Positions 28,535-48,119 of a stretch of 64,000 nucleotides of DNA are shown piece by piece (the stretch's first letter is position 1; each line of letters starts with the position of its first letter). Source of the DNA: an uncultured bacterium (GTDB taxonomy: Bacteria > Chlamydiota > Chlamydiia > Chlamydiales > JAAKFR01); assembly GCA_964350245.1 (NCBI GenBank), contig CAYGJC010000001.1, positions 4,139 through 68,138 of the forward strand, read 5' to 3'. Position numbers and translations under genes: made by a program. Under the pieces are notes generated by a model. The model ran no database searches. It was not told the origin of the DNA and saw only the letters and a program-made list of their open reading frames with translations.

Positions 28535-28601
28535 AATTAGCTGAAGAGCTTAACAAATTATTTACATAATTTCAATCGATTTATCCATTTTAAGAAATGT
28601 G

Positions 28602-28631
28602 TTGATAGAAGATCCCGAGGGAAGATAAAAT
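28602..28631 (+). promoter_or_regulatory. candidate sigma-70-type promoter for clpC
   Basis: TTGATA (28602-28607), an 18 nt spacer, then TAAAAT (28626-28631), about 80 nt upstream of the clpC ATG. Confidence 0.3.
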
Positions 28632-28709
28632 AAGCGAAGGGTAGCACTTGTTTAATTATCCTTTATGCCCTATACGCAGTATTCCTAACGAGATAACGGT
28701 GAGAGATTG

Positions 28710-31196
28710 ATGTTTGACAAATTTACGAATCGCGCAAAGCAAGTCATCAAATTAGCAAAAAAAGAGGCTCAAAGGCTCAACCACAATTATTTAGGTACAG
28801 AACACATTCTTCTGGGCCTTCTCAAACTGGGGCAAGGCGTTGCCGTTAATGTTCTGAGAAATCTGGGACTCGATTTTGAAACCGTACGCCAAGAAGTTGA
28901 GCGTCTTGTAGGATATGGCCCTGAAATTCAGGTGTATGGCGATCCCGCTCTCACAGGCCGTGTTAAAAAAGTTTTCGAATATGCAAACGAAGAGGCCTCC
29001 AATCTCGGACATAACTATGTCGGTACCGAACACCTACTTTTAGGTCTACTCCGACAAACAGACGGTGTGGCCGCTCAGGTATTAGAAAACCTTAATGTCG
29101 ATTTACAAGAAGTGCGCAAAGAGGTGTTGAAGGAATTAGAAACCTTTAATTTACAACTTCCTCCAGCAGGGCAATCTGCAGGTGGTCCGGGTAAAACCTC
29201 AGAGAAAGGTTCCGAAAAGCTCCCCGCTTTGCGTGCCTACGGGTACGACCTAACTGAAATGAGCCGGGAAGGCAAACTCGACCCCGTGATTGGACGCGAT
29301 AAGGAAGTGGAACGTTTAATTCTTATCCTCTGCCGCAGACGTAAAAATAATCCCGTTTTGATTGGTGAAGCAGGGGTAGGAAAAACAGCAATTGTGGAGG
29401 GGCTAGCCCAACGCATCATCAAAGGTGAAGTTCCGGACAATCTCCGCAAGAAAAAGCTAATCACACTCGATTTAGCTCTGATGATTGCGGGAACTAAGTA
29501 CCGCGGTCAGTTTGAAGAACGGATCAAAGCGGTCATGGATGAAATTAAAAAGCATGGGAATATCCTGCTTTTCATCGATGAGCTACACACGATTGTGGGG
29601 GCCGGAGCCGCTGAGGGAGCGATTGACGCCTCAAATATTCTTAAGCCTGCCCTCTCAAGAGGTGAGCTGCAGTGTATCGGGGCCACGACATTAGACGAAT
29701 ATCGCAAACACATTGAAAAAGACGGTGCCTTAGAACGCCGCTTTCAGAAGATTGTGGTTCAACCTCCCTCCGTTGAAGATACAATTGAAATCCTCCGTGG
29801 TTTGAAAAAACAGTACGAAGATCACCACAACGTAACCATCACCGATGAGGCGCTGCAAGCAGCTGCTATCCTCTCTGATCGCTACGTGCATGGACGCTTT
29901 TTACCTGATAAGGCCATCGATCTTCTTGATGAAGCAGGCGCTCGGATGCGGGTCGCTACCATGAATCAACCCTCCGACATTTCCTCTCTGGAGACAGAAA
30001 TAGAAGAGACAAGACGCTCTAAAGAAAAGTCCATCAGCACGCAGGAGTACGAAAAAGCGGCCCGACTCCGTGATGAAGAGAAAAAGCTGCGGGAAAAATT
30101 GCAATCGATTCGCACTGAATGGGAAACACACAAAGAAGAGCATCAGGTTCCTGTTGATGAAGAGGCTGTCGCTCTGGTTGTCGCTGCTCAAACAGGAATT
30201 CCTGTTAACCAACTCACAGAGGCTGAGACACAGAAACTCTTAAAAATGGAAGAGTTGCTCCGCTCACAGATCATTGGACAAGACGATGCGGTCGATATTG
30301 TCTGTCGCGCGATTCGCAGAGGACGTACCGGAATTAAAGATCCCAATCGCCCCACAGGCTCCTTCCTCTTTTTAGGGCCAACAGGTGTGGGAAAAACCCA
30401 CCTGGCTCGCCTACTAGCTATTCATATGTATGGTGGTGAGGACGCTTTGATTCAAGTAGATATGTCCGAATATATGGAGAAATTCGCTGTCAGTCGTATG
30501 ACCGGTTCCCCTCCGGGTTACGTGGGACACGAAGAGGGAGGGCAGCTCACTGAGCAAGTACGTCAACGTCCTTATTGCGTAGTTCTTTTTGATGAAATTG
30601 AGAAAGCCCACCCTGATGTGATGGATTTGCTCTTGCAAATTCTTGAGGAAGGGCGCTTAACCGATTCAGTAGGGCGCAAAGTCAATTTCCGTCATGCCAT
30701 TGTGATCATGACCTCTAACTTGGGAGCTGATTTGATCCGCCGCTCGTCAGAAATTGGCTTTGGCTCAAAAACAGGCGTGCCTGATTATAAGACCATTCAG
30801 GAGAAGATCGAAGGGGCCATGAAAAAACATCTCAAGCCCGAGTTTCTCAACCGGGTGGATGGAACTGTTATCTTTAGGCCTCTGGATGAAGAGGCGCTTT
30901 CGGTCATTGTCCACCTTGAGATTGAAAAAGTTGAGAAAAGGCTGGCTAAGCACGATCTTCATGTGGAGCTCACAGAAGAGGCGATCCATCTGCTTGTGAA
31001 GCTGGGGAACATGCCGGAGATGGGAGCGCGCCCTTTACGCCGCGTGATCGAGCAGTATATTGAAGATCCGCTCGCAGAAAAGCTCATTCGCAATCCAAGC
31101 GAGACCAAACGTTATCTAGTGAAGGTTAAAGATGAGAAGCTGGAGTTTGAGCAGATTGAGAATCTTGCTTTAGAAACCTCTGAAGTCTCTAATTAA
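28710..31196 (+). CDS. clpC: ATP-dependent Clp protease ATP-binding subunit ClpC
   Basis: Double Clp-N repeat ([12 protein letters not shown] / [12 protein letters not shown]). Two AAA+ modules ([20 protein letters not shown]). UVR-like linker [15 protein letters not shown]. Confidence 0.95.
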
Positions 31197-45150: not shown

Positions 45151-47336
45151 CCCTCTTCTCCAGGATGATGTGAAGGGTATTTCACCCTAGGGTGACTCGC
45201 TGCCAGCAAGGTTTTAACTAGAGTCGCTTTGACAATTCCCAGCTCTTCAAAAGTAAGAAGCGATTCATCAAACTGGCCATCTTCCATTTTTTGTGCAATC
45301 AATGTTTCTACAAGGTTAGAAACCGTCTCCTGATTGAATAAATCCAAACAACGAGAGGCCGCCTCTAGCGTATCGGCAATCATAATAATGGTCGATTCTT
45401 TGGTACGCGGCTTAGGCCCACTATAGCGAAAATCACGCTCCTCGACTTTTCCCTTATCTCCCTTAAGCATCTCTAGTTGTTTGTGATAGAAATAGTAAAC
45501 AAGGGTGGTTCCATGATGTTCTTTAATGACATCGATAAACTGCTCAGGAAGCCCCATTTTTCTAGCCAGTGCCACACCTTCACTCACATGGGCAATGATC
45601 ACTTGCGTCGACTCAAGAGGGGTAAGTAGCTGGTGCATATCCATTCCCCCCAGCTGATTTTCGGTGAAGTATTGTGGGTTAGCCAGCTTGCCAATGTCGT
45701 GATACTGCGTTGAGACACGGCAGAACAGACCATTGGCCCCAATAGCTGAAGCTGCTGCTTCTGACAAGTGTCCCACCACCATTGAGTGCTGGTAGGTCCC
45801 CGGCGCTTCGATAGTCAGTCTACGGAGAAGCTCATTGCTCGGGTCCATGAACTCCATCAAGGTGATATCCGTTAGAATGCGGAAGGTTGACTCAAATACA
45901 GGCAACAAACCGACGACCAATATCGCTGTCATCCCCATGAAGAAAAACGTGCTGGTGAGATCACCGACAAAACTGATGGTGAAGGCTGTATTTTCGTATA
46001 AATTAAACGCGAGTATGACCAACACGCTGGCCAGCCATGCTTTGGCACAGACAACAAAAACCTCCTTACGGCGGCGGATTTTCCGTGCTGTCAAGATCAC
46101 CACCATTGCTGTGATCAGGTTGATGACCAAAAAGGGAATACTCTCTACAGCTAAAGCCATTGCAAATACAATCGCCAGAAAAGCAGAAGCAAACGCCCCA
46201 ATCCGCAGATTCATCAAGCTCGTTAATAAAATCGCTGCAAAGGGAACAAAAAGCGGGAAGCGGACTAAGTCGATGAGATTTGAAGAGGTTTGAATCAACA
46301 GAAGTTCCACTCCCTTGGCTAGTACAAGAGAGAGAGTCAAAATCGTAGCCAAAAGAGCTAGTTTGCGATTCGAATAAAAAATATCTCGGTGGTTTTCAGA
46401 GAGGTAGACACCTGAAATTCCGATGAAAATCAGGGTCATCAACAGGGAGCCTGCCACCGTGATGGGATCGAGCAGATTTCTTTTATGACTCAGCCCCTCT
46501 TTCATCGACTGCAGCATTGAAATATGGCGGGTGGTGACCTTTTCTCCTTTATCGATCAGGCGGTCGCCAGAGCGAATGCGTGTGAACTTTTCCGGGATCT
46601 TATTTTGGGCCAGTTTGCGTAGGGTATACTCGACTCCTTGGTCGATCTCAAAATTCCACGTGATGGGCTCGAAATAGTGAAGGATGAATTGAGAGATGGG
46701 CGCCGGAATCTCCACATCGGAGAAAATTTGTTTTCCGAAGCCCGACCAGAAGAGGATCGGAAGACGCCCCACATTTTCTGCCGGAAAATAGGCGTAGAAA
46801 TCGGGCCTCGTAATGGGAAGCTCATCTTGTGGAAGATCATCAATTTGTTGCAACGTTTTCACATCGGTAAACCGCTTCTGCGCTAGGCCATCGGCAAGGA
46901 GGCTCAGGGCAAGGGCGATGTCATCAAAGGCATTTTCCTGGCTCAGCTTCTCCCATTTTTCATTCCCCACCGGATCGCGGGTGATGTACTTTTGAAAATC
47001 GGTCACCTTTGTGTGGATTTCATCATCTTTGATGCGGTAGATCGTTCCGATTTCATGAGCGGCCTCCTGCTTGAGGATGATCGTAGCTTCTTCGTCCGGA
47101 AAGGCAAAATCAATTTGCGCAACCACATAGCGATTCGCCTCGCCGCCGAGTTCCAACTTTTCGATATAGGTTTCGCGGAAGTGAAGAAAAAGAAAGAGAA
47201 AGAGAGTAAAAAAGCCTCCAATGAGGAGGCGTATAGTAAAGCTTTTATCGAAATAGCTTTGCGCTCGGGAGAAGCGGAGTTCGTTGAGATCCTCTTCTTC
47301 TAACGATTCGTCTGTATCGGAAGAGAGATCATCCAT
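45147..47336 (-). CDS. 7TM-HD (PgpH-like) membrane phosphohydrolase
   Basis: Extracytoplasmic N-terminal domain, seven hydrophobic helices, and a C-terminal HD domain (HSMVVGHLSE, YHDIGKL, EHHGTT). Confidence 0.88.
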   Translation of the reverse strand: MDDLSSDTDESLEEEDLNELRFSRAQSYFDKSFTIRLLIGGFFTLFLFLFLHFRETYIEKLELGGEANRYVVAQIDFAFPDEEATIILKQEAAHEIGTIYRIKDDEIHTKVTDFQKYITRDPVGNEKWEKLSQENAFDDIALALSLLADGLAQKRFTDVKTLQQIDDLPQDELPITRPDFYAYFPAENVGRLPILFWSGFGKQIFSDVEIPAPISQFILHYFEPITWNFEIDQGVEYTLRKLAQNKIPEKFTRIRSGDRLIDKGEKVTTRHISMLQSMKEGLSHKRNLLDPITVAGSLLMTLIFIGISGVYLSENHRDIFYSNRKLALLATILTLSLVLAKGVELLLIQTSSNLIDLVRFPLFVPFAAILLTSLMNLRIGAFASAFLAIVFAMALAVESIPFLVINLITAMVVILTARKIRRRKEVFVVCAKAWLASVLVILAFNLYENTAFTISFVGDLTSTFFFMGMTAILVVGLLPVFESTFRILTDITLMEFMDPSNELLRRLTIEAPGTYQHSMVVGHLSEAAASAIGANGLFCRVSTQYHDIGKLANPQYFTENQLGGMDMHQLLTPLESTQVIIAHVSEGVALARKMGLPEQFIDVIKEHHGTTLVYYFYHKQLEMLKGDKGKVEERDFRYSGPKPRTKESTIIMIADTLEAASRCLDLFNQETVSNLVETLIAQKMEDGQFDESLLTFEELGIVKATLVKTLLAASHPRVKYPSHHPGEEG

Positions 47337-47419
47337 GACATTTAGCGCTCTTTTTCATCCTTTCAGAATAGGAAATTCAGCTTATTTAAGCAAACACTGC
47401 GCATTTTAGCTCTTCTTCT

Positions 47420-47950
47420 ATGGAAAGCACAAATCACTTCCAGCTCATTAAGGAAGCAAAGGATAAGGGGTATTTGATCAATTTAACTTTCCTATGGCTT
47501 TTGAGCCCAGATCTTGCCGTCAAGGGCTGTGTTGAAAAACTTAGGATGCTTAGATTTAGTCAGATTTGGTCGTCAGTTTTTAAGCCGCGAGCGAAAGAGA
47601 TAGCCACAGAGCTACCTCTGAGCGAGCGGCAAAAAAAATGGCGCGCCAAAGATGTCTGAAGATAAGCGTTATAAGTTTTTCAACACAGCCCCGCCAAGCG
47701 CGTTGCCCAACGGGTTTCGCAAGGCGGTCATTTTATCCCACAAGAAACAATTGTTCGACGCTATCATCTTGGGATAAAAAATTTAATAAAATATTATTTA
47801 CCTCTTGCAGATAGTTCGTTAATTATCGATAATTCTGTTGGAAAATCTCGCAGAATTATTATACAGGCGACAAGCAAGCGATTAGTGGTAAAGGACCCTC
47901 TTATCTGGAAACAAATTCAAGAACGGTATGAAAAACTCTCAGATCAATAA
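47420..47950 (+). pseudogene. remnant of a zeta-toxin-like / COG4185-type P-loop ATPase gene: 5'-truncated and interrupted by a MITE
   Basis: Left part ESTNHFQLIKEAKDKGYLINLTFLWLLSPDLAVK (to 47524). Right part RVAQRVSQGGHFIPQETIVRRYHLGIKNLIKYYLPLADSSLIIDNS... (47699-47950, same frame). The joined sequence matches the C-terminal two thirds of this ATPase family. No Walker A coding sequence lies upstream: there is an in-frame TAA at 47387-47389. Confidence 0.7.
47525..47690. mobile_element. miniature inverted-repeat element (MITE-like, non-autonomous), 166-168 bp
   Basis: GGGCTGTGTTGAAAAACTTA (47524-47543) is the exact reverse complement of TAAGTTTTTCAACACAGCCC (47672-47691). The flanks are CCGTCAAG (47517-47524) and CCGCCAAG (47691-47698), an 8 bp direct repeat with 1 mismatch. 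The element has no ORF of transposase size. Removing 47525-47698 restores the host reading frame. Confidence 0.65.
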
Positions 47951-48119
47951 ACTTCTTTTAGAGGCTCACGACCGAAGCGTAGAGTTGGCTATCGATACTT
48001 CTATTCGTACGGGTGTCCCTCTCGTAGTAGAGAAGAATGGCAAAATCATCGAAATCCAACCTAAGTACGAGTACGTTCGCATTCCTCTCAAGAAGCCAAA
48101 AAAGAAAAAAGGCAAGTAG
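47928..48119 (+). CDS. small hypothetical protein with a lysine-rich tail, possibly a partner of the decayed ATPase
   Basis: 63 aa ORF whose start overlaps the last 23 nt of the pseudogene. KLLLEAHDRSVELAIDTSIRTGVPLVVEKNGKIIEI resembles small antitoxin-like partners (from memory only). Tail KKPKKKKGK. Confidence 0.4.
   Translation: MKNSQINKLLLEAHDRSVELAIDTSIRTGVPLVVEKNGKIIEIQPKYEYVRIPLKKPKKKKGK

Follow-up and report, generated by a model that had tools for sequence, protein, structure and literature searches.

The question raised by this locus was whether a 168-bp segment at 47524-47691 of the window (the whole stretch of 64,000 nucleotides that was analysed), which has matching inverted ends and interrupts a coding sequence, is a mobile element that inserted there, and if so of what kind. 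The best explanation was very probably a non-coding MITE inserted into the remnant of a zeta-toxin-like gene, with its transposase presumably supplied in trans.

The 20-mer GGGCTGTGTTGAAAAACTTA at 47524-47543 had its exact reverse complement at 47672-47691, and two occurrences of this 20-mer were reached in 0 of 100 dinucleotide-preserving shuffles. Comparison across the family shows that the element proper is GGCTG...CAGCC (47525-47690), with a TIR of 19 bp. The outermost G/C pair belongs to the duplicated target, so the perfect 20-bp inverted repeat of the preliminary description was exact but is refined to a 19-bp TIR plus a chance flank match. The MITE proper (47525-47690, + strand; 166 bp, GGCTGTG...CACAGCC) was without coding capacity and formed a hairpin over its full length; stop codons occurred in six of six frames, in agreement with the claim that no transposase-sized ORF lies between the repeats. 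The left TIR (47525-47543, + strand; GGCTGTGTTGAAAAACTTA, 19 bp) matched the inverted repeat of IS903B at 14 of 18 positions and was extended by imperfect pairing to 47569. The right TIR (47672-47690, − strand) was the exact complement of the left one, and its imperfect pairing extended inward to 47646 and included the CTGAAG motif, which was invariant in the family. Complementarity of the arms was 80% out to 46 nt inward. The central GC-rich stem-loop of the hairpin (47584-47630, + strand) differed in sequence between subfamilies, with the pairing kept. The flanks CCGTCAAG (47517-47524, unstranded) and CCGCCAAG (47691-47698, unstranded) agreed at 7 of 8 positions, with one T>C difference, as had been described for an 8-bp target-site duplication (TSD) with one mismatch; one of the two copies was needed for restoration of the reading frame.

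The upstream fragment of the host gene (47420-47524, + strand), of the zeta-toxin/AAA-ATPase family (PF06414-type), belonged to an ORF that entered the element and stopped at 47659. The downstream fragment (47699-47950, + strand; 83 codons plus stop) was about 70% identical to P0001 and had no in-frame start codon. Deletion of 47525-47698 (174 bp) resulted in a continuous ORF (...SPDLAVK followed by RVAQRVSQGGH...). The rejoined product of 118 amino acids had 31 database relatives (E down to 1.5e-42; mostly 182-204 amino acids) which carried Zeta_toxin (PF06414) and AAA_33, one of them being named as Parachlamydiaceae. That the deletion recreates a conserved motif, as proposed earlier, was confirmed by an alignment with 11 homologues, in which the junction was gap-free and inside the conserved block LAVKRVAQRV. 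The 168 bp were therefore an insertion and not ancestral coding sequence, and they were absent from the intact homologues of the host gene. An apparent indel between L037 and L038 was merely the result of different gene calling.

The earlier claim of an insertion in a coding sequence held for the insertion, but not for an otherwise intact host gene. Homology of the window gene started at approximately residue 59-71 of the full-length relatives, with the P-loop part absent, and the divergent 7TM-HD gene starting at 47336 left no room for the P-loop region. As judged from these alignments, the host gene is a 5'-truncated remnant without approximately 60-70 N-terminal residues, including the P-loop. 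In a gene for a zeta-toxin-like ATPase, the element landed at approximately codon 114; the 5' third of this gene was also lost, and either the loss or the insertion could have come first. Because of the loss of its 5' third, the ATPase gene is non-functional; insertion into such a truncated remnant was probably neutral for the host and without phenotypic cost, and the local biological consequence is therefore small.

An intact ORF of 63 amino acids (47928-48119, + strand) followed the host gene and, in other genomes, is conserved as the gene downstream of the zeta-like ATPase. In two of these, the intact ATPase gene was directly followed by a homologous ORF of 66-68 amino acids, which suggests that the ATPase and the ORF of 63-68 amino acids form a two-gene, toxin-antitoxin-like module. 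The small ORF overlapped slightly with the end of the ATPase gene and had no Pfam match (window 47928-48119; L046 1446-1646; L044 3578-3784). In the window, it was still intact although the ATPase was dead.

Synteny between the window and its closest sequenced relative (GCA_022599615.1) ended exactly upstream of the 7TM-HD gene (47337-47420 in the window vs. 9459-10000 in L031). This was also the point of the 5' truncation of the zeta-like gene, and it is therefore regarded as a rearrangement breakpoint with small mobile elements beside it in both genomes. No comparable host-gene site was present in the relative, in which synteny was broken and another palindromic element occupied the region. 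The latter (JAHZIS010169108.1, L031 9522-9786) was a different element of 265 bp with a perfect 24-bp TIR (AACCACAGAGATCACAGAGCACAC); it was located just upstream of the 7TM-HD orthologue and was absent from the window, and the ENA scaffold L033 broke inside it. It probably represents another MITE-like family of these chlamydiae, besides that of the window.

Flanking sequences of the copies of the element, defined as GGCTG...CAGCC, were compared for direct repeats. Matches were 9 of 9 in L015, 8 of 9 in L009b, 7 of 9 in L003 and 7 of 8 in the window, that is, TSDs of 8-9 bp at four independent insertions (9 bp at three, 8 bp in the window). Among random pairs, 0.17% matched at 7 or more of 9 positions. 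No duplication was recognisable in L002, L009a and L011a. The L002 sequence was syntenic with the window at 23.5-27.8 kb, with approximately 71% amino-acid identity. With the element removed, its region upstream of clpC was collinear with window positions 28535-28710 (score 236 vs. 184.5 with the element kept); given this collinearity across the junction, the window represents an empty site for the L002 insertion. An insertion event, as previously claimed, was thus evidenced by the TSDs, by the empty site and by the intact homologues without the 168 bp.

Contigs of the source organism assembled by Logan with k = 31 from five sequencing runs ended at 47553 or started at 47661. These breaks were 30-31 nt (k-1) inside the element, and the other contig ends varied. 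The pattern is the signature expected of a repeat bounded at 47524 and 47690, and indirectly suggests more than one copy of the element in the source genome. A polymorphic insertion would have produced breaks at the flank, and flipping of the interior would have placed them at the 20th base. Two Logan assemblies (ERR3535001 and ERR3534996) also ended at window position 63453, inside an ORF, where no repeat or indel was identified.

In a scan of genomes for the exact TIR, with each species represented by one genome, complete elements with the same termini were found in two other Chlamydiae MAGs: a copy of 135 bp upstream of clpC in L002, and a copy of 168 bp in opposite orientation, bordering a long ORF on its 5' side, in L003 (KR126_chlam_2). 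The metagenome scan added a subfamily of 170 bp with copies 95-97% identical to each other. At least five of them were present in Ga0105046, on three contigs (two copies each in L009 and L011, one in L018), with two of the contigs ending inside a copy, and two were present in Ga0335394 (L014 and L015). The fetched loci contained ten places with an element, nine of them distinct, as L014 and L009b are one locus. Overall, the family comprised elements of 135-170 bp, within the size range of prokaryotic MITEs (below approximately 400 bp), in three to approximately four lineages or subfamilies with common termini and subterminal motifs, the latter distinguishing one end (...GATTYAG..GATTT) from the other (CTGAAG...). 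The search for copies in related genomes that had been recommended was thus positive, and, with several copies of 95-97% identity in single samples, the element was not unique.

A profile search found no further copies in the window or in approximately 9 kb past each end, and one copy was present in the approximately 82 kb of the source genome examined. Single-TIR metagenome hits (L004-L008, L012, L013, L016, L017 and L019) were rejected as IS ends and regarded as chance 20-mers, because both sides of the 20-mer were conserved in groups and the genes were unrelated. Among them, L004, a candidate IS end with an inward ORF, was a different small palindrome beside a Kelch-like ORF. Repeated small ATACAACCCCGGGGTTGTAT-like palindromes occurred at L004 690-860 (contig Ga0181531_10146434); one of them mimicked the TIR by chance and was unrelated to it. 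The scan of viral contigs gave six chance hits only, BLAST against plasmids gave no match with strict or permissive thresholds, and the concatenated six-frame peptides of the element had no match in a database of 5.8 billion proteins. A weak TIR-like match at window position 28955 was within the coding sequence of clpC and was discarded as chance.

The L011a copy interrupted an AbiEi-antitoxin-like gene, and the L009a copy was at the 3' end of a Fic-motif gene, beside a weak AbiEii-like fragment. Apart from these two, L003 and the window, the copies were intergenic. According to these contexts, insertions survive in accessory genes of toxin-antitoxin type and between genes. A solitary TIR-like end (GGACTTTTTCAACACAGCCC, 17 of 20 positions) was observed at L011 354-373, directly upstream of the AbiEi-like gene interrupted by L011a, and may have been left by a further copy or by a related element of greater length.

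Prediction of the RNA fold, which had been recommended, resulted in a single hairpin over the whole 168 bp (−92.4 kcal/mol, z = −12.6; −47.3 kcal/mol, z = −10 with DNA parameters). A hairpin over the entire length formed in every member of the family (z = −4.6 to −10, DNA parameters). Across seven copies from approximately four lineages, 93.7% of cells were paired, vs. 38-53% with the partners slid. Compensatory changes occurred in 13 of 51 pairs, and the observed values were reached by 0 of 500 shuffles. In each of the four lineages, RNA read in window orientation had a stability advantage of 10-26 kcal/mol over the complementary strand, and in three of them it also contained more G-U pairs. 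Orientation relative to the neighbouring genes was numerically more often sense than antisense (7 vs. 2; p ~ 0.09). In Rfam, the element had no match at E ≤ 10 and the window as a whole had none at the gathering thresholds, and no promoter or terminator consensus was found in or beside the element.

The conserved hairpin could also be read as serving mainly as a functional RNA or DNA structure, in mRNA processing or stability or as a small RNA gene, with mobility secondary or extinct. Retention of the full-length hairpin in all members despite their diverged interiors, the compensatory changes, the better folding of the window-orientation strand in all four lineages and the more frequent sense orientation relative to neighbouring genes are consistent with such a role. 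It was nonetheless unlikely, given the lack of an Rfam match and of a promoter or terminator consensus, the approximately four independent lineages and the non-significant 7:2 bias; full-length palindromy is also widespread among MITEs for which no function has been proven, and the TSDs, the different loci in related genomes and the empty sites show transposition. Improbable to a similar degree was an old Chlamydiae-wide MITE lineage with a hairpin selected at the RNA level and mobilised by an undescribed chlamydial IS type; if RNA-level selection were true, the copies would be cis modules of mRNA processing or stability, or a source of small RNAs, in obligate intracellular bacteria. Compared with a Rickettsia palindromic element (RPE), the element is likewise palindromic, occurs in obligate intracellular bacteria and is inserted into protein-coding genes, and its length together with the TSD (174 bp) is a multiple of three, as would suit an insertion tolerated as an extra in-frame peptide of the host protein. 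An RPE is, however, read through in frame and adds a peptide segment, whereas the element truncated the ORF by stops, which occurred in six frames, the host frame stopping at 47657-47659. The host gene was without its P-loop region and most other copies were intergenic or at gene ends, and an RPE-like insertion was therefore hardly credible. A palindrome arising by chance, or an error of assembly, would be compatible with the one copy in the window and with an interior of that copy present in one assembly only, but it had next to no probability: both junctions were found with zero mismatches in five independent assemblies, homologous elements occurred in unrelated assemblies from other laboratories, and the fold was far from random (z-score as above).

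For the MITE reading, a DDE transposase encoded elsewhere would bind the terminal 19 bp (GGCTGTGTTGAAAAAYTTA) together with the asymmetric subterminal motifs beside them, excise or copy the element, and join it to a target cut with a stagger of 8-9 nt, the repair of which would yield the flanking duplication. Based on terminal similarity, the parent is most likely an IS5-family element of IS903/ISAba12 type, at somewhat better than even confidence. The TIR matched the inverted repeat of IS903B at 14 of 18 positions and that of MITEAba12/ISAba12 at 13 of 16, and its start was of the IS903-group type of approximately 16-18 bp (GGCTTTGTTG...), in similarity and not in identity. IS903B has the terminal 18 bp GGCTTTGTTGAATAAATC and a 9-bp direct repeat (PMC10569121), and MITEAba12/ISAba12, of the IS5 family, has the TIR GGCTTTGTTGCACAAA and a 9-bp TSD (PMC6382973). 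The 8-bp TSD in the window argues against an IS903-type parent, as 9 bp are typical of the IS903 group.

Origin from, or mobilisation by, an element of the IS1595 family (IS1016 or ISPna2 group) instead of one of IS5/IS903 type was less probable, although it deserves consideration. ISApl4, of the IS1016 group, has the inverted repeat GGGGCTGTACTAGA and 8-bp direct repeats; the group shares with the element the tip GGGGCTGT and has repeats of 7-9 bp (mostly 8 bp) and A/T-rich targets (PMC12561309). These repeat lengths cover both the 8-bp TSD in the window and the 9-bp TSDs elsewhere, the tip GGGCTGT matches, and relatives of IS1016 occur in Rickettsia, another obligate intracellular bacterium (PMC8101967). 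However, the likeness to ISApl4 was confined to the first 7-8 nt, the rest of the inverted repeat differing, whereas IS903B and ISAba12 matched along the whole TIR. Three of the four duplications were of 9 bp, and the targets (CCGTCAAG, ACTATGATG, CTTCTTGAC and CCATTGAAG) were not A/T-rich, unlike those of ISApl4. Elements of the IS1016 group are autonomous and approximately 700 bp long.

The search for an IS with the same TIR, which the preliminary description had asked for as a possible mobiliser, found none in the DNA and collections covered. A tblastn search with the transposase of IS903B against approximately 431 kb of fetched DNA, a large part of which overlapped, gave no hit below E = 2, and no IS1595-type transposase was found in this DNA either. 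No DDE transposase with matching GGCTGTGTTGAAAAA-type ends was found in the fetched DNA or in the plasmid or viral collections, and no DDE transposase was annotated from approximately −9 to +12 kb or from +16 to +72 kb in window coordinates. A DDE transposase fragment (L046 1728-2102; DDE_Tnp_1_3/DDE_Tnp_1), putatively IS982-like from its C-terminal motifs, adjoined the intact gene most closely homologous to the host gene. This fragment was rejected as the partner transposase, its ends being unrelated to the TIR of the element.

Among known systems, MITEAba12 resembled the element in being short and non-coding, with stops in all six frames, and in its TIR (GGCTTTGTTGCACAAA vs. GGCTGTGTTGAAAAAC in the element; both of GGCT-TGTTG type). 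In both, 9-bp TSDs occur in part of the copies, a gene was found interrupted, and outside the TIR there is no likeness to the candidate parent IS. They differed in length (113 bp vs. 166-170 bp), in the full-length hairpin, which was not reported for MITEAba12, and in the host (Acinetobacter, Pseudomonadota, vs. Chlamydiota), and the window copy had a TSD of 8 bp. MITEAba12 is mobilised by an identified, co-resident parent IS, ISAba12, whereas no parent of the element was found in the DNA covered. IS903, with 1057 bp and a transposase of approximately 307-322 amino acids, had no similarity to the element beyond the TIR. Whole elements of approximately 100-170 bp that can fold into one long hairpin also occur as ERIC/IRU in enterobacteria, Correia/NEMIS in Neisseria and RUP in Streptococcus pneumoniae; they are often co-transcribed with their neighbours, with orientation-dependent effects reported, and have TA or other short target duplications, the parent transposase of RUP being of IS630 type. 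They are not known to share sequence similarity with the element or to have TSDs of 8-9 bp. A palindromic repeat of REP/BIME type (mobilised by the IS200/IS605-like RAYT; 20-40 bp, GTAG/CGTC heads, no TSD) was rejected, the element having 166 bp, TSDs of 8-9 bp and GGCTG ends.

The element is thus of an ordinary kind, and represents a new MITE family in environmental Chlamydiae; in the literature searched, no description of MITEs in Chlamydiae and no occurrence of the TIR of the element were found. To our knowledge, the classical pathogenic chlamydiae are nearly devoid of mobile DNA. The preliminary description had proposed that further copies would mark recent genome plasticity, and related copies were found across Chlamydiae MAGs and metagenomes: the family is common to sediment, freshwater and host-associated chlamydial MAGs, marks such plasticity, and explains recurrent assembly breaks in these MAGs. 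Its 19-bp TIR provides a bait for an active chlamydial transposase, which could help the development of genetic tools, scarce in this phylum.
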